Positions 8,731 through 30,382 of a stretch of DNA of 30,382 nucleotides are shown piece after piece. The number at the start of each line of letters is the position of its first letter. Within the stretch, counting starts at the first letter, position 1. Made by a program: the position numbers and the translations under genes. Under the pieces are notes generated by a model that saw only the letters and a list, made by a program, of their open reading frames with translations, did no database searches and had not been told where the DNA came from. Source of the stretch: a virus. The stretch lies in IMG/VR virus record IMGVR_UViG_3300029936_000055, one strand, 5' to 3'.

Positions 8731-9482
8731 TCAGCGTGCGCCTCGACGGCCTCGACGCCCTGCAAGCCGAGCTGTCGGGATACGGCCGGCAGATCCCGTT
8801 CGCCGCCGCGCAGGCCATCACCATCACCGGGCACGCCGTACACGCCGACATTCGGGCAGAGCTGTCGGCGCGCGTGCAAGGTGGCGCCACCCCCTACACC
8901 CTGCGCGCGTTCGCCGTCACGGGCGCCACCAAGGCCGACCTGACCGCCACCATCAGCCTGAAGACGCCGCAGCAAGCGCCCGGCACGCCATACGAGCAAT
9001 CGATCGGCCATCTGTTCCGTGGTGGTCGGCGCAGCATCAAGCGCATCGAAGACTGGCTGCACGCCCGCGGCATCCTGCCGGCTGGCCAGCAGATCGCGCC
9101 CGGCCGCAGCGCGCCGATCGACGGCCGCGGCAATGTGCGCCGCCAGGCGCTGCAGGAAATGCTCGGCGTCCTCGCCGCCGCCGGCCGCGGGCTGCGCAAC
9201 CTGCGCGTCTACCGCAAAACGGGAAAATCCAAGGGGCCATCGGCGGTCGGCTTCTTCGTCGCCCTTCCGGGCGCTGCCCGGGCCAAGCACCTGCACCCGG
9301 GCATCTATCGGCGCGTCGAGCGCGGCGGCGAATCGGTCATCGAGCCGTGGTTCTACTTCGTCGCACCAGCCCCGTACGCGCGCGTCTTCGACATCGAAGC
9401 GATCGCCCGGCAGACGGTGTCCAGAACCTTCGCCGACACCTTCGCCAGGACGCTGGCGAAGGCCATCGCCGGGGCCCGCTGA
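8727..9482 (+). CDS. Hypothetical virion-associated-type protein (251 aa)
   Basis: ATG 8727. The N-terminus MISVRLDGLDALQAEL weakly resembles HK97 gp10-like proteins. The gene is coupled to the large terminase gene. Confidence 0.5.
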   Translation: MISVRLDGLDALQAELSGYGRQIPFAAAQAITITGHAVHADIRAELSARVQGGATPYTLRAFAVTGATKADLTATISLKTPQQAPGTPYEQSIGHLFRGGRRSIKRIEDWLHARGILPAGQQIAPGRSAPIDGRGNVRRQALQEMLGVLAAAGRGLRNLRVYRKTGKSKGPSAVGFFVALPGAARAKHLHPGIYRRVERGGESVIEPWFYFVAPAPYARVFDIEAIARQTVSRTFADTFARTLAKAIAGAR

Positions 9483-11677
9483 TGGCCACCCTCACCGAAG
9501 TCCAAACTGCGCGCGCCCGCCTGCTCGCGCAGCAGTCCGAGCACGAATACCGATCCGCCCTGGCCGACACCGTCCCGGCAGACCATCTGCTGTCCGCCGC
9601 CATCGGCGTCCGCCGCCAGGTGATTGATCTGCTCGCCGGCCTGACCGACCGCCTGCTCGAGTGCGTCGCCGACCAGGCCGACGAAACCCGCGTGCACTAC
9701 CTCCTCACCGAGCAGATCAACCAGGTGCTTCGCGAAGCCGGCGACCGCGCCCGCGCCGTCACCGCCAGCATGCCCACCTTCGGCGCCGAGTTCCGCCGCG
9801 GAGTGCGGCCGCGCGACCTGCTCACCGTCTCGCAGTGGGCGGACCGCTATCGCCTCATCACCAGCGGCACCAACGCCCCCGGCCCGTGGCAGACCGCGCT
9901 GACCCCGTACCTGCGCGCCATTCAGGATGATCTGTCCGAGCACTCGCCGGTCGCGACCGTCGTCTTCCGCAAGGCTTCCGGCCTCGGCGGCACGGAGGCC
10001 ATGTTCAACTGGATCGCCTACACCATGCATCACTTGGGCAACAGGGACATGCTTCTCGTGATGCCGACGCTCGAGCTGCGGGACCGCAGTCTCAACCCGC
10101 GGCTGGCCAAGATGCTGCGGCAGACCCCGGTCCTCTCGTCCCTCGTCACCACCGCGTCGCGCAACAACGCCAACCGCGTCGACATCCTCGAATACGGCGC
10201 CGACGCGCGGCTGATCAAGGCGGGCGCCAACAGCGCCGACAGCCTGCGATCAGACCACGTGCCCTACGTCATCTGCGACGAAGTGTCTGCATTCAAGTGG
10301 GACGTCGGCGGCGAAGGCGACCCATTCACCCTGATCGCCAACAGGCAGCGCACATTCACCCGCGCCAAGACGCTGCTGATCAGCACGCCGACCAACGACG
10401 GCCGCTGCCGCATCGATGAGGCCTACCAGGCCAGCGACCGGCGCCATTACCACGTCCCGTGCCCGGAGTGCGGCGCGCTGCACGAGCTGCAGCAGGCGAA
10501 TCTCCGCTGGCGCACGCTGCCCGAAGAGCACGCCCCTGGCCAGCCGGAGAAACAGATCGTCACCGCCGCCTGGATGGTCTGCCCGCACTGCGGCAGCGAG
10601 ATCCAGGAGGGCCAGAAGCCGCAGATGCTCGCGCGCGGAATCTGGATTGCCGACCGCCCGCATGTGCACCACGTGCACGGCTACCACCTCAACGCCTTCA
10701 ATGCACCGGTGGGCCTCGGCCTCTCGTGGGTCAAGATCGCGCAGAAGTGGCTCGATGCGCAGACCGACACCGCCAAGCTCAAGGCGTACATCAACACCTT
10801 CCTGGGCGAAGTCTTCGTCGAAAGCGGCCAGGGCGCCGACGCGCTTGCGCTGCTCTCCCGCCTCGAACCCTGGACGGCCGAGCAGATCCGGGCCAGCGTG
10901 CGGCCGCTGCGCATCGTCTGTGGCATCGACGTGCAGAAGGATCGCCTCGAAGCCACCCTGGCCGCCTTCGGGCTCGACGAAGAATGCTGGGTGCTCGACC
11001 ACCAGATCCTCGCCGGCGACACGGCGCAGCCTGAAGTATGGGCCGACCTCGCCGACCTCCTGCGCGCCGCCCGCGTCGAGCGCGCCTGCATCGACAGCGG
11101 CTACCAGACCGGCATGGTGCAGGATTTCTGCGCGCATCGCGCCTGGTGCGTGCCGACCAAGGGCCTTGCCGGCCCCGGCCGCGACGTCGTCGAAGACCAG
11201 CGCCGCCGCGCCGCCAGACTGCGCACCAAGCGCCGCCGCGGCCGGCCCGTCGAGCCCATCGGCGTCGATCATGCCAAGGCCCTGATCTACAGCCGGCTAG
11301 CTCAGACCAAGGTCGGCGCCGGTTACATCCACTTCCCGGCCGAGGCCTGGGCCGATGACGAGTACTTCCTGCAGCTCGCCGCCGAACAGATGCGCACGCG
11401 CCAGCGCGGCGGCAGGACCATCACCGAATGGGTCCAGATCCGGCCGCGCAATGAAGCGCTCGACTGCCTCGTGCTGTGCCTGTCCGCGCATCGCCTTGCC
11501 GGCAAGCTCAAGGCCACCGACAAGCCGGCCGCTTCAGCGCCCGAGCAACGCACAGCGAGCGCGCCGGCCGCAACGCCAACGGACCAGGGCGCCGCACCGC
11601 CAACCGCACCGCCCACCATCCGCCGGCCACCGCGCCGCCCGCCCGCCGCATCCGACTCTTGGGAGACAAGACTATGA
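9482..11677 (+). CDS. terL: Terminase large subunit, lambda GpA family, with an N-terminal extension of about 96 aa (731 aa)
   Basis: Collinear similarity to lambda gpA: WADRYRL, PYLRAIQDDL, CPECG...CPHCG, RNEALDC. The first 315 codons of the 1046-aa track ORF are rejected. Confidence 0.85.
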   Translation: MATLTEVQTARARLLAQQSEHEYRSALADTVPADHLLSAAIGVRRQVIDLLAGLTDRLLECVADQADETRVHYLLTEQINQVLREAGDRARAVTASMPTFGAEFRRGVRPRDLLTVSQWADRYRLITSGTNAPGPWQTALTPYLRAIQDDLSEHSPVATVVFRKASGLGGTEAMFNWIAYTMHHLGNRDMLLVMPTLELRDRSLNPRLAKMLRQTPVLSSLVTTASRNNANRVDILEYGADARLIKAGANSADSLRSDHVPYVICDEVSAFKWDVGGEGDPFTLIANRQRTFTRAKTLLISTPTNDGRCRIDEAYQASDRRHYHVPCPECGALHELQQANLRWRTLPEEHAPGQPEKQIVTAAWMVCPHCGSEIQEGQKPQMLARGIWIADRPHVHHVHGYHLNAFNAPVGLGLSWVKIAQKWLDAQTDTAKLKAYINTFLGEVFVESGQGADALALLSRLEPWTAEQIRASVRPLRIVCGIDVQKDRLEATLAAFGLDEECWVLDHQILAGDTAQPEVWADLADLLRAARVERACIDSGYQTGMVQDFCAHRAWCVPTKGLAGPGRDVVEDQRRRAARLRTKRRRGRPVEPIGVDHAKALIYSRLAQTKVGAGYIHFPAEAWADDEYFLQLAAEQMRTRQRGGRTITEWVQIRPRNEALDCLVLCLSAHRLAGKLKATDKPAASAPEQRTASAPAATPTDQGAAPPTAPPTIRRPPRRPPAASDSWETRL

Positions 11678-12003
11678 CCGCCCCGCCGCTCCGCCATCCT
11701 CCCAGTCGTCGTCTGCCAGAGTCCGCCGAGTGGCTGGCCGAGCAGATCCAGCACTCGCTGGCCGACGAGCTGCAGACGCCGGACGAACTGCTGGCGCCGC
11801 TGGCGCAGGCCATCGTCCGCCGGCTGATGGTCGAATGCGGCGGCGCCAGCGTCTACCTGCCGGCCCGCTGCCGGCCGAGCGCGCAGGAGATCCGCGCCCG
11901 CTGCGACGGCCGTCCGATCGCCGAGGTTGCGCGCGGTCTCGGCGTGTCGCGGACGACGGTGTATCGGGTGCTGGCTGGAAAGGATGGCTCGACATGTGTT
12001 TAG
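11674..12003 (+). CDS. Mor/C-family transcription activator-like protein (109 aa)
   Basis: ECGGASVYLPA...DGRPIAEVARGLGVSRTTVYRVL parallels Mu Mor GGGQVYIPR...NGRNVSELTTRYGVTFNTVYK. Confidence 0.7.
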   Translation: MTAPPLRHPPSRRLPESAEWLAEQIQHSLADELQTPDELLAPLAQAIVRRLMVECGGASVYLPARCRPSAQEIRARCDGRPIAEVARGLGVSRTTVYRVLAGKDGSTCV

Positions 12004-12143
12004 CAGAAGCCTTTTTTCTACTGATTGGCTGCGCAGCCGTGCTGGCTGTTCTCGGCCCGCAGCACAAACGGACCAATAGCAACCCGCCGCCGACATACGA
12101 GAGGCCGCCGCCGCCACCATCGCCGCCGCCGCGGCGCTTATGA
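11994..12143 (+). CDS. Possible small Pro-rich membrane or lipoprotein-like peptide (49 aa)
   Basis: AAGGA upstream. The sequence MCLAEAFFLLIGC is lipobox-like but has no N-terminal positive charge. GC3 is low. Confidence 0.3.
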   Translation: MCLAEAFFLLIGCAAVLAVLGPQHKRTNSNPPPTYERPPPPPSPPPRRL

Positions 12144-12326
12144 AGCGGCAGACTTGATCCGGAAAAGTTCCCACAGTCCCGGATGCATGCGCCGGTTTCC
12201 GGCTTCCCACTCCTGCCAGCCGCGCAAAGTACAATGGATTAGCGCAGCGGCAGCGGTTTGGGTCAGTCCGGCCGCCTCGCGGGCTGCGCGGACTTCGGCA
12301 GGAGATGGGTGGTTAGCTGCGGTCAT
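12138..12326 (-). CDS. Small XRE/YiaG-type HTH protein, Aca2-like N-terminal pattern (62 aa)
   Basis: AEVRAAREAAGLTQTAAAALIHCTLRGWQEWEAGNRRMHPG. ATGA coupling to the upstream gene. Confidence 0.7.
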   Translation of the reverse strand: MTAANHPSPAEVRAAREAAGLTQTAAAALIHCTLRGWQEWEAGNRRMHPGLWELFRIKSAAS

Positions 12327-12562
12327 GGTGAATAACCAGAATCCTTCCCCACGGGGCCGCTGATGATCGCGTTAATCTCGGACATCAACACAGCCGCTTC
12401 CATGCTTTCATCCTCCATACACGTGAAATCGTCGCGCTCGATGACAAACTCGGTATTGTTCCAGTTGGGATTGAACAGCGCTGTCTGCTGCAGAAGCTCT
12501 TTGATCGTGAGCACGTCGGCTTCTGGAACTTCGTAAGCGATTTTGATGGTGGTCGTTGCCAT
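12323..12562 (-). CDS. Small, strongly acidic protein of unknown function (79 aa; 14 D/E versus 4 K/R)
   Basis: AAGGAG lies 6 nt upstream of the ATG. GC is visibly lower than in the flanks. The gene has its own promoter. Confidence 0.65.
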   Translation of the reverse strand: MATTTIKIAYEVPEADVLTIKELLQQTALFNPNWNNTEFVIERDDFTCMEDESMEAAVLMSEINAIISGPVGKDSGYSP

Positions 12563-12612
12563 TTCGATCTCCTTGCTTGTTGGCGGGTTGCGATGCGCTC
12601 CCCATGAACTGC

Positions 12613-12640
12613 ATTATACACGCAATGCGTGCAAAAGCAA
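12613..12640 (-). promoter_or_regulatory. Sigma70-type promoter: TTGCTT-N16-TATAAT
   Basis: Minus-strand -35 at 12640..12635 and -10 at 12618..12613, about 50 nt upstream of ATG 12562. Confidence 0.65.
12619..12631. promoter_or_regulatory. Perfect 13-bp palindrome CACGCA-A-TGCGTG inside the promoter spacer (operator candidate)
   Basis: It lies within the 16-nt gap between the -35 and -10 elements, covering 13 of its 16 nt. Confidence 0.5.
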
Positions 12641-12652
12641 GCGCTATTTGCA
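12630..12652. promoter_or_regulatory. TGCAAA-N11-TTTGCA dyad overlapping the -35
   Basis: It has the same geometry and TGCAA/TTGCA core as the OR dyad at 3366..3388. Confidence 0.4.
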
Positions 12653-12813
12653 TTCCGCGACGAAAAATCACCCGCAAAAATTCCCATTTTTCCTAGAACT
12701 GGACACCCAGGACTGCGCACAATTCCGCGCATGCGCTGCCCTGTCACCACCATCCGCCGTGAATCCCCTCCAGTTTGCGGTGGACGGACTCCCCACCAGG
12801 GCAGCGCACCCGC

Positions 12814-13032
12814 ATGAGCACGGCCGCCGACCTGCTTGCACTCTACCTGGAAGCCGAGGCGCGCATCCTGCGCCGGCAGTCCTACACCCTCGGCGACCGC
12901 ACCTTCACCCTTGCCAACCTCGCCGAAGTCCGCCGCGAGCGCGAACGCCTCGAAAAGCGGGTCGCCGCTGAAGCCACCGGCGGTGCCGGCCGGGTCGGCC
13001 CGCGTCATCTGCAGGCCGACTTCTCGGCATGA
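12814..13032 (+). CDS. gpW-like head-tail joining protein (72 aa)
   Basis: ADLLALYLEAEARILRRQSYTLGDRTFTLANLAEVRRERERLEKRV fits the gpW pattern. It sits just before the portal gene, as in lambda. Confidence 0.65.
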   Translation: MSTAADLLALYLEAEARILRRQSYTLGDRTFTLANLAEVRRERERLEKRVAAEATGGAGRVGPRHLQADFSA

Positions 13033-14588
13033 ACTGGCTGGATCGCATGATCGCCGCCGTTGCGCCCGCCTCCGCAGTCCGCCGGCAGCAGGCCCGCCGG
13101 CAGCTTGCCGTGCTCGGCGCCTACGACGCAGCGACGCCCAGCCGGCTCCGGAAGTACTCGCGCGACACGCGCAGCGGCGAAGCGCTTGCCCGCCTGCAAG
13201 CGCCGTCGATCCGGCAGCAGGCGCGCGAGCTTGACCGCAACCACGACCTGGCCAGTGGCGCACTCACCGTGCTGGTCAACAACATCGTCGGGCCAGGCGG
13301 AATCGGCATCGAACCGCAGCCGCGCAGCGTCTCCGGCGAAATCCTCGACGACCTCGCCGCCCGCCTGCTCGAGCTGTGGCGCGACTGGTGCCAGCAGCCC
13401 GAAGTCACCGGGCAGCACTCCTGGGCCTCGGCACAGCGCCTGGCATGCCGCACCTGGCTGCGCGACGGCGAGTGCTTTGCGCAGATCGTCGAAGGAACGG
13501 TCGCCAAGCTCGACCACCGCACGCTCGTCCCGCTGTCGCTCGAACTCATCGAAGCCGACCAGATCCCGGCCGACACTGACCTTGCCGGCCGCGCCAGCCA
13601 AGCCGGCATCGTGCGCAACGGCTGGGGCCGCCCGACCGCCTACCGCGTGCTCAAGGCGCATCCGGGCGATACATGGACGTGGTCCAACCGGCAGGACTTC
13701 AAGACCATCCCGGCCGACAGCATGCTGCACCTGCGGCTCGTCGATCGCATCGGCCAGTGCCGTGGCGTGTCGGTCCTGGCCAGCGTCATCACCCGCCTCG
13801 AAGACCTCAAGGACTACGAAGAGTCCGAGCGCATCGCCGCCAAGATCGCCGCCTCGATGGCCGCCTTCATCCGCAAGGGCACGCCCGATCTCTACGGCGC
13901 CACCGAGACCGAAGCCGACGGCACCACGCCGGCGCCGCGCGACATGCGCTTCCGGCCCGGCATGATCTTCGACGACCTCATGCCCGGCGAGGATATCGGC
14001 ACGATCGATTCGACGCGGCCGAACACCGGGCTGCAAGCCTACCGTGACGGCCAGCTGCGCGCGGTCGCCGGCGGCATCGGCGCCAGCTACTCGTCGGTGA
14101 GTCGCAACTACAACGGCACCTACTCCGCGCAGCGCCAGGAACTGGTCGAACAGTGGGTGCATTACCAGGCGCTCGCCGAGCACTTCACCGCGCAGTGGGT
14201 TCGCCCGGTCTGGCAGCGCTTCGTCGCGCTCGCCGTGCTGTCCGGCGCCGTCGAACTGCCCGGCGAGCTGCAGCCCGAGACGCTGGATGACGCGCTCTTC
14301 GTCGGCCAGACCATGCCCTGGATAGATCCGCAAAAGGAGGCGCAAGCCTCCGAGATCCTGGAGCGCAACCGCTACGTCTCGGCGCCCGAGATCATCCGCC
14401 GCCGCGGCGGCAACCCGCGCGAGACCATCCAGCAGCAGGCCGCCTGGCAGAGGATGCTGCGGGAGTCCGGCCTCGATCGCCAGCCGCCGGCCGCCGCGTC
14501 GCCTGCGCCCGCATCGCCGGAGCCATCGAACGACGGCGCCGATCCCGCCGAAGAGGCCAATCACCAGACCCCCGGAGCCACTGCATGA
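13029..14588 (+). CDS. Portal protein, lambda (gpB) family (519 aa)
   Basis: N-terminus MNWLDRMI...YDAA...SRLRKYS...ELDRNHDLA. Position matches the lambda order. Confidence 0.85.
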   Translation: MNWLDRMIAAVAPASAVRRQQARRQLAVLGAYDAATPSRLRKYSRDTRSGEALARLQAPSIRQQARELDRNHDLASGALTVLVNNIVGPGGIGIEPQPRSVSGEILDDLAARLLELWRDWCQQPEVTGQHSWASAQRLACRTWLRDGECFAQIVEGTVAKLDHRTLVPLSLELIEADQIPADTDLAGRASQAGIVRNGWGRPTAYRVLKAHPGDTWTWSNRQDFKTIPADSMLHLRLVDRIGQCRGVSVLASVITRLEDLKDYEESERIAAKIAASMAAFIRKGTPDLYGATETEADGTTPAPRDMRFRPGMIFDDLMPGEDIGTIDSTRPNTGLQAYRDGQLRAVAGGIGASYSSVSRNYNGTYSAQRQELVEQWVHYQALAEHFTAQWVRPVWQRFVALAVLSGAVELPGELQPETLDDALFVGQTMPWIDPQKEAQASEILERNRYVSAPEIIRRRGGNPRETIQQQAAWQRMLRESGLDRQPPAAASPAPASPEPSNDGADPAEEANHQTPGATA

Positions 14589-30258: not shown

Positions 30259-30382
30259 TTATGCCGCACGGGTCGCGGCGATCAGGAAATCCCATGCGTG
30301 CTTCGGGTTCCCGGTTTCTGCAACTCCGGCAATTGCTGCCCGTCCCAGTACGTCATGCGGTAGTTCAGCCGGGACAACCGCA
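30259..30382 (-). CDS. C-terminal part of the 86-aa wrap-around gene (same gene as 1..251)
   Basis: See the feature at 1..251. Confidence 0.55.
   Translation of the reverse strand, partial: AVVPAELPHDVLGRAAIAGVAETGNPKHAWDFLIAATRAA
30269..30382. repeat. Terminal direct repeat, copy 2
   Basis: Identical to 1..114. Confidence 0.95.

Follow-up and report, generated by a model that had tools for sequence, protein, structure and literature searches.

A reverse-oriented two-gene cassette in an uncultured phage

The window analyzed here is a stretch of 30,382 nucleotides of viral DNA (IMG/VR record IMGVR_UViG_3300029936_000055), and our subject is a short cassette that it carries on the minus strand, at positions 12138-12640. 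Direct reading of positions 11900-12900, together with the listing of open reading frames (ORFs), confirmed that the cassette contains two genes, the first encoding an acidic protein of 79 aa and the second a helix-turn-helix (HTH) protein of 62 aa. Its features are listed below in the direction of transcription.

12635..12640, minus strand: −35 hexamer TTGCTT, read directly from the sequence; three of its six positions agree with TTGACA.
12617..12633, no strand assigned: putative Aca10-type operator TG-CACGCA-T-TGCGTG-TA, with a perfect 6-1-6 core at 12619-12631, lying in the spacer of the promoter and overlapping the −10 hexamer.
12613..12618, minus strand: −10 hexamer TATAAT, read directly from the sequence; separated from the −35 hexamer by a 16-nt spacer and kept across loci.
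12585..12603, minus strand: putative 5′-leader hairpin GGGGAGCG-CAT-CGCAACCC, just 3′ of the inferred transcription start.
12569..12574, minus strand: ribosome-binding site AAGGAG, read directly from the sequence; the ATG lies six bases downstream.
12323..12562, minus strand: acrIF15-family gene, 79 aa (ORF listing and homology).
12138..12326, minus strand: aca10-family gene, 62-aa HTH_31 protein (ORF listing and homology).

Transcription is inferred to start at about 12605-12607, and the two ORFs overlap as ATGA at 12323-12326. The ribosome-binding site and both coupled ORFs were all found where a preliminary description of this DNA, made from the letters alone, had placed them. That description had also called the cassette low in GC, which holds at about 0.5 against 0.66 for the window: the GC content is 0.51 for the 79-aa ORF, 0.62 for the HTH ORF and 0.48 for the promoter and leader. 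The GC content at third codon positions (GC3) is 0.66 and 0.60 for the two ORFs, respectively, and 0.88 for the portal gene.

Positions 12613-12640 are called a promoter because they are conserved in about 30 related loci and match the published Aca10 promoter TTGCAA-N16-TATTCT. A TTGCnn hexamer at the −35 position is common to about 30 aca10-type loci, and promoter, palindrome and leader are kept together in 30 of 78 loci, with different payload genes behind them. The term near-consensus, used in the preliminary description, is too generous for the −35 hexamer. Inspection by eye showed no LexA-box-like site in the cassette promoter.

A natural variant of the same phage (L005, ENA ERZ761592) carries TGTAAT instead of TATAAT. 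The change affects the conserved second position of the −10 hexamer, equivalent to 12617 in the window and also part of the extended operator, and may weaken the promoter.

The second gene encodes an Aca10 homologue

The 62-aa protein matches the sequence of PDB 7XI5 (phmmer E 9.8e-24; residues 6-59 on Aca10 residues 5-58), the crystal structure of Pseudomonas citronellolis Aca10 (WP_074980464.1; PMC9410881). In that work, the Aca10 dimer binds the palindrome AATACGCTCA-T-TGAGCGTATT (minimal site ATACGCTCATTGAGCGTAT) located inside the TTGCAA-N16-TATTCT promoter. R44 is essential for DNA binding, Q22 and Q37 contribute to it, and dimerization needs G49 (PMC9410881). Residues Q22, R34, Q37, R44 and G49 of Aca10 are identical in the 62-aa protein, as Q23, R35, Q38, R45 and G50. 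In Pfam, HTH_31 matches the protein (E 4.4e-8), with MqsA and Aca2_YdiL below threshold. Judged by these alignments, the 62-aa protein is an Aca10 homologue; it has at least 488 homologues. The preliminary description had likened it to Aca2/YiaG-type proteins; it was right as to a small aca-type HTH and mistaken as to the family, which is Aca10 and not Aca2 (Aca2_YdiL E 0.11 versus E 9.8e-24 for 7XI5). The HTH motifs of Aca10 and Aca2 are reported to superpose structurally (PMC9410881). By analogy with the published family work, the 62-aa protein would bind the operator and repress the operon.

Compensatory changes in the operator and a putative leader hairpin

The perfect palindrome reported in the promoter spacer is present at 12619-12631, with the sequence CACGCA-T-TGCGTG in coding-strand orientation (CACGCA-A-TGCGTG on the plus strand). 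The window holds no other exact copy, and a search of it for a second operator gave none, the matches with two mismatches being at chance level. The site shares its 1-bp centre and its placement with the Aca10 site ATACGCTCA-T-TGAGCGTAT, which was validated by electrophoretic mobility shift assay (EMSA).

In other loci, compensatory changes keep the palindrome, as in CACGGA/TCCGTG, CGCGCA/TGCGCG, CACTCA/TGAGTA and CGCTCA/TGAGCG. A looser palindrome search recovered, as one operator class, the core validated in P. citronellolis, TACGCTCA-N-TGAGCGTA. Further operator classes across loci are TACGCGCA-N-TGCGCGTA, CACGGA-N-TCCGTG, TACGAACA-A-TGTTCGTA and TACGACCA-A-TGGTCGTA. For scoring covariation, 17 distinct leaders were aligned. 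In this alignment, 94% of the cells of the operator palindrome are paired, with three compensatory pairs, and the leader hairpin shows changes on both sides at five of its eight pairs, the window copy having two mismatched inner pairs. For operator and leader hairpin jointly, the observed scores for pairing and for covariation were not attained in any shuffle. An aca10 promoter DNA motif and a covarying hairpin in the 5′ untranslated region (5′UTR) have already been reported (PMC13551039, 2026); the leader hairpin described here is likened to that RNA motif, the window copy alone being of unremarkable stability.

Two variations on this layout were seen. Upstream of the Aca10 operon in L059 and L060, a variant operator GCACGGATTCCGT occurs in two copies, one in the promoter spacer and the other overlapping the −35 hexamer or just upstream of it; the window has one operator. 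In addition, many leaders from the L025-L074 range have another conserved element, CCGCGCCTCGGGAACAGGGGC, 3′ of the first hairpin and 5′ of the ribosome-binding site (alignment columns 72-97). A GCCTC/GGGGC stem is possible in this element, which the window leader does not have.

The first gene encodes an AcrIF15 homologue

The preliminary description counted 14 acidic against 4 basic residues in the 79-aa protein and assigned it to no recognizable family. The composition is correct (14 D/E, 4 K/R, pI 4.05). As to the family, the 79-aa protein has no match in Pfam, PHROGs, PADLOC or NCBIfam, its family profile has none among PDB sequences, and Pfam gave nothing consistent on 56 family members; the protein nonetheless belongs to a published family, that of AcrIF15. 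BLASTP against the validated AcrIF15 (WP_047683605.1) gave 44% identity over 66 aa (E 4e-18), hhalign aligned the family profile with AcrIF15 end to end (probability 99.9%, E 2.4e-32), and the family profile hidden Markov model scores AcrIF15 at 1e-36. In addition, the 79-aa protein is 49-55% identical to published AcrIF15 homologues from Pseudomonas alcaliphila, Rhodanobacter and Azotobacter. A word-indexed homology search had returned two proteins; the family surfaced with exhaustive phmmer (55 representatives) and reached 93 members in a profile search. All 93 retrieved members are unnamed or labelled hypothetical protein. They share a core of about 68 aa, with the consensus MTTIxIAYEV..NWNGAxFxIERDDFTCI..D..A..LL..I..II.G. 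On the strength of these alignments, we take the 79-aa protein to be an AcrIF15 homologue.

Other reported partners of Aca10 were considered for the first gene. AcrIF17, reported with Aca10 in Rahnella, was ruled out because it has 112-116 aa and is basic; looking it up exposed the AcrIF15 match. AcrIC6 and AcrIC7, both published Aca10 partners, were set aside on their reported taxonomic distributions, which do not agree with that of the 79-aa family. AcrIF6-10 have solved structures, and PDB searches with the 79-aa protein gave no match to any of them.

AcrIF15 was described from a Klebsiella prophage (WP_047683605.1), with 22 homologues (Pinilla-Redondo et al. 2020, PMC7648647, Supplementary Data 4). 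In P. aeruginosa, Pectobacterium and Serratia, it is a strong inhibitor of the type I-F systems, and it abolishes CRISPR interference with transcription (CRISPRi), hence it acts before target-DNA binding (PMC7648647). By analogy with this published family work, the 79-aa protein would inhibit type I-F systems, presumably at the same step.

The operon could be of the same type and its divergent AcrIF15 homologue still act on another target, such as a I-E, I-C or non-CRISPR defence of the host, which is probably betaproteobacterial. Several observations point this way. Identity to the tested AcrIF15 is modest, at 44%, and dual or shifted subtype specificity is known in other Acr families. The validated Aca10 partners AcrIC6 and AcrIC7 act on I-C and I-E systems. 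Anti-defence genes other than acr genes also occur in Aca-regulated operons, and the slot in front of aca10 holds RadC, C5 methylase and YccJ-like genes in other loci. On the other hand, the three I-F systems inhibited by AcrIF15 are less than 50% identical to one another, which indicates that the family is broad within I-F, and the conserved family core (NWNG, IERDDFTC) is intact in the window copy. We therefore give a shifted target a small share of the probability, roughly one chance in eight.

Predicted fold of the 79-aa protein

Structure prediction followed by a Foldseek search was carried out for the 79-aa protein, as the preliminary description had proposed. The AlphaFold2 model has a beta-alpha-beta-beta-alpha order with a predicted local distance difference test score (pLDDT) of 88; the model of the Serratia rubidaea family member shows the same fold at pLDDT 95. 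For both models the top PDB match is DinI (7ywa_A; E 0.06, probability 0.96-0.97, TM score 0.53-0.62), and neither the PDB nor BFVD gave anything at E 0.001 or better.

These matches raise another explanation, namely that the 79-aa protein acts on RecA and the SOS response as a DinI-like modulator and not as a Cas inhibitor. DinI-like genes are common as prophage morons, DinI leads the matches of two independent family models, and the order and length of the secondary structure elements are those of DinI. Homology to DinI was rejected: hhalign of the family profile against DinI gave a probability of 0.4%, and none of the 56 family members examined has a DinI match in Pfam. DinI uses acidic residues of its C-terminal helix; by inspection, those of the 79-aa protein lie mainly in the beta2-beta3 region. 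Furthermore, no Foldseek match reaches E 0.001, and one family member has direct experimental anti-CRISPR activity (PMC7648647). On these models, the likeness to DinI is a resemblance of fold only, and a role in the SOS response seems very improbable.

Payload exchange in front of aca10

The preliminary description had proposed searching for homologues of the HTH next to variable small genes. A scan of viral contigs with the HTH gave 69 loci, and upstream ORFs were compared in 72 loci. The HTH gene is almost always preceded by an ORF on the same strand, usually of 55-170 aa and mostly acidic, that ends 1-8 nt inside or just before the HTH start codon. These upstream ORFs fall into about 38 unrelated clusters. 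Apparent links within the largest cluster are an artefact of the translated shared 5′ leader and do not reflect protein likeness. Among the 37 other payloads, an AcrIF11-family equivalog (E 7e-52, L043-L045) was found, as well as matches to AcrIC5, RadC, C5 DNA methylase and YccJ, one each.

The exchange of the first gene is visible in a sister phage with 86-89% nucleotide identity to the window (L097 and L024, on the same IMG/VR contig 3300037458_001557). With blastn, L097/L024 align with the window at 9350-11977, 12140-12304 (aca10) and 12553-13858 only, the last block comprising the start codon, leader, promoter, gpW and portal. The unaligned part of the cassette is the following feature.

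12305..12552, no strand assigned: swapped payload segment, with no sister-phage similarity, both flanks aligning at 86-89%.

In the corresponding gap (L097 2651-3036), the sister phage has an unrelated 70-aa ORF that overlaps the start of its Aca10 gene, and the breakpoints of the swap coincide with ORF boundaries. A more distant relative (L095, portal 69% identical) has no blastn similarity to the Mor-cassette region, and only about 300 nt separate the end of its terminase ORF from the gpW-like region. These comparisons therefore identify the cassette as an accessory insertion with an exchangeable first gene. This agrees with the earlier proposal of a moron, for which the different gene in the same slot of the sister phage and the foreign composition (GC, GC3) both speak.

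The same data bear on a type II toxin-antitoxin (TA) pair, in which the first gene would encode the toxin and the HTH an autoregulating antitoxin. The HTH is weakly similar to the HTH domains of the MqsA and HigA2 antitoxins, the likeness of Aca10 to HigA2 has been noted in the literature, and an HTH gene in second position is the order of higBA and mqsRA. Against this, the HTH pairs with about 38 unrelated upstream genes and so has no fixed partner, while AcrIF15-family genes are found next to regulators of at least four kinds and also on their own. The first protein is very acidic, is homologous to a validated anti-CRISPR protein, and has no toxin domain that could be found in Pfam, NCBIfam or PADLOC. 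In addition, the 62-aa HTH aligns with the 65-aa Aca10 over residues 6-59, so that a separate toxin-binding domain would have no space. Given the lack of a toxin family, the acidity of the first protein, the promiscuity of the HTH and its minimal size, the toxin-antitoxin alternative, named in the preliminary description, is not supported; we consider its probability to be negligible, in the range of a few chances in a hundred at most.

In plasmid-like contigs of P. aeruginosa (L020-L023), a 62-aa Aca10 homologue (73% identical) is coupled by ATGA to an acidic protein of 104-148 aa with a ribbon-helix-helix-like N-terminus. The operon is probably multi-gene, since the validated operator core, in its exact form TACGCTCATTGAGCGTA, is found 853 nt upstream. 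Some 3.5 kb upstream there is an AcrF3 (PF21401) gene, and genes for KfrA, KorA and ParE/RelB are close by.

A probable acrIF15-aca10 operon and its expected regulation

Taken together, an Aca10 homologue, an operator of validated layout, an AcrIF15 homologue and a swappable slot uphold the anti-defence reading of acr-aca type that the preliminary description had put forward. The cassette is very probably an acrIF15-aca10 anti-CRISPR operon, horizontally acquired as a moron that lies in reverse orientation, with the terminase/Mor genes on one side and the head genes on the other.

Several points weigh against this interpretation. A generic promoter scan of the cassette region gives no promoter and the −35 hexamer is weak; a generic scan likewise found no intrinsic terminator 3′ of the operon. 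The window leader hairpin, with its two mismatched pairs, is no more stable than shuffled sequence (z −0.06), and EMSAs did not detect binding of Aca10 to its RNA motif (PMC13551039). On the side of the payload, a single AcrIF15 has been tested, and the window copy is only 44% identical to it. In the same study, AcrIF17.2, a distant homologue (39% identity) of another Acr, lost activity against one system, and DNA mimicry by AcrIF15 is a suggestion of the authors only (PMC7648647). Searches of the PDB by sequence and by fold turned up no solved structure of AcrIF15, and the predicted fold of the family resembles no solved Acr.

If the acrIF15-aca10 interpretation is right, expression would follow a burst-then-repress course, as expected from the two families. 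Upon genome entry, the unrepressed promoter, with its perfect −10 hexamer and TTGCTT at −35, would fire. The leadered mRNA would yield the 79-aa acidic AcrIF15 homologue which, by homology, would block the surveillance complex of type I-F (Csy/Cascade), either before target DNA is bound or at that step. Translational coupling through ATGA would then yield the 62-aa Aca10 homologue, the dimer of which would bind the spacer palindrome, occlude RNA polymerase and shut the operon down after the initial burst.

Aca10 specificity classes

Across loci, the Aca10 motif at residues 37-46 tracks the operator class, as expected if the HTH reads the palindrome. WQEWEAGNRR goes with CACGCA, WQQWEAGDRR with CGCTCA, and WQDWEAGKAR or WQDWEAGVAR with CACGGA or CGCGCA. 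More generally, the motif WQ[E/Q/D/N]WEAG[N/D/K/V][R/A]R covaries with the half-site class (CACGCA, CGCTCA, CGCGCA, CACGGA, CACTCA; loci L003-L092). The correspondence is not one-to-one: L074 and L050 have the same protein motif and different operators.

This pattern suggests discrete Aca10 specificity classes. CGCTCA, CGCGCA, CACGCA, CACGGA and CGAACA/CGACCA may represent five candidate half-site classes, and the class appears to be set largely by protein residues 39, 44 and 45. Whether the family comprises at least five mutually orthogonal repressor-operator classes is a more tentative matter, which we regard as possible and, on balance, rather doubtful; a separate proposal, that AcrIF15 has a DinI-like fold unseen in solved Acrs, is held with the same reserve. 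Were the classes orthogonal, co-resident acr-aca10 cassettes would be insulated from each other and from host “anti-anti-CRISPR” Aca decoys, and the Aca10 family would provide a ready-made set of small orthogonal repressors.

Genomic contexts of AcrIF15-family members

AcrIF15-family members were found in several other settings. In a P2-like Pectobacterium carotovorum prophage, the family gene is followed by a gene for an Aca2_YdiL protein (E 6.6e-25). The 5′ region of this locus has a TTGACA-GTTCGCGATTGCGAAC-TACAAT promoter and the hairpin TTCGAGATGGCTCGAA (IR1 in the promoter, IR2 the hairpin), and these elements are very similar to GTTCGCAATTGCGAAC...GATTCGAGATTGGCTCGAATC, the sequence bound by ZF40 Aca2 as given in PMC9410881. 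On conjugative Serratia plasmids, the family gene precedes a DUF1870 (Aca2-type) gene and a DEAD/DEAH helicase gene, an architecture described in PMC13551039. In a P22-like prophage of P. parmentieri, and likewise in Erwinia phage Midgardsormr38, holin and Q are separated by a reverse two-gene cassette; its second gene encodes a small Cro/YdaS-like HTH protein, according to weak Pfam matches for P. parmentieri and to inspection for the Erwinia phage. In Janthinobacterium (L013 3998-4457), the family gene overlaps a gene that, by inspection only, resembles one for a ribbon-helix-helix protein. Other members adjoin Aca10 homologues, in a Dechloromonas metagenome-assembled genome and another phage contig (loci L010, L014 and L015), and still others stand alone, without an HTH gene, in Serratia rubidaea and Enterobacter prophages. 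Each of these contexts is typical of an acr gene.

Some members (P0123, P0141) are fused to a C-terminal extension that looks ribbon-helix-helix-like, again by inspection only. The fusions and the overlapping ribbon-helix-helix genes could represent Acr-Aca fusions or Aca14-like regulators.

The P22-like P. parmentieri prophage also contains a Tad2-like (anti-Thoeris) gene about 1.4 kb from the cassette (L019 2298-2579), located beyond the lysis genes, towards the terminase genes. Together with the AcrIF15-family cassette, it looks like an anti-defence cluster.

The phage genome and the flanks of the cassette

The window begins and ends with an exact 114-bp direct terminal repeat (1-114 identical to 30269-30382), and several metagenomes contain contigs of about 30.3 kb with this sequence. 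The window is therefore a complete phage genome, assembled as a circle of 30,268 bp. Neither Rfam families nor tRNAs were found anywhere in it. The genes that flank the cassette are as follows.

Upstream of the Mor gene, plus strand: GpA-type terminase gene.
11674-12003, plus strand: Mor-family late activator gene, between terminase and cassette and convergent with aca10.
Start at about 12814, plus strand: gpW-like head-tail adaptor gene (phrog_118), followed by a lambda-type portal gene.

The 134-bp gap between Mor and aca10 contains no recognizable terminator on either strand. Among the products of the head module are a ClpP-protease/capsid fusion and a decoration protein of the Phage_cement_2 type.

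Significance

Read as an anti-CRISPR operon, the cassette is a clean example from nature, in a phage of about 30 kb that is uncultured and rich in GC. With it the AcrIF15 family reaches new phage backgrounds and the AcrIF15-Aca10 pairing is documented, while the sister phage shows payload exchange at single-gene resolution between a conserved promoter/leader and the aca gene. For annotation, Pfam, PHROGs, NCBIfam and PADLOC are without an AcrIF15 model that detects the 79-aa protein. AcaFinder reports that AcrIF15 colocalizes with AcaI and with AcaII, and Aca10 is also picked up by its AcaI model, so that this tool may already cover the AcrIF15-Aca10 pairing. Both components and the regulatory architecture have been published, and the locus opens no new question.

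Comparison with known systems

The acrIF8-aca2 operon of Pectobacterium phage ZF40 follows the same logic as the window operon: a strong early promoter, an operator in the promoter, a 5′UTR hairpin (putative in the window), the acr gene and then the aca gene. In the P. carotovorum prophage and on the Serratia plasmids, AcrIF15-family genes hold the place of the acr gene in true Aca2 operons. The regulator differs, that of the window being unlike Aca2 (Aca2_YdiL E 0.11) and without the Aca2 C-terminal domain. ZF40 Aca2 regulates at the level of both DNA and RNA, whereas EMSAs detected no binding of Aca10 to its RNA motif.

As for the payload, Klebsiella AcrIF15 is homologous to the window protein across the whole 66-69-aa core, is likewise small and acidic (about 69 aa, pI about 4), and is also the first gene product of an aca-terminated operon on a mobile element. 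The window protein has an extra 10-residue C-terminal tail, which is predicted with low confidence or disordered. The setting is different too: the window copy resides in a high-GC uncultured phage and is paired with Aca10, whereas the AcrIF15 partners named in PMC7648647 are Aca5 and Aca9.

The closest regulatory parallel is the P. citronellolis acrIC7-acrIC6-aca10 operon (PDB 7XI5; PMC9410881, PMC7913775), whose Aca10 shares its DNA-contact and dimer residues with the window protein. Both operons have a TTGCnn-N16-TAnnnT promoter, a palindrome with a 1-bp centre in its spacer and the aca gene in last position; the 5′UTR hairpin, too, may be common to both. The operator half-sites, CACGCA in the window and CGCTCA in P. 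citronellolis, have four of six inner positions in common. Q38 and D43 of Aca10 are replaced in the window protein by E39 and N44, changes that track the operator class across loci. Finally, the P. citronellolis operon carries two payload genes, of the AcrIC type, and the window operon carries one, of the AcrIF15 family.

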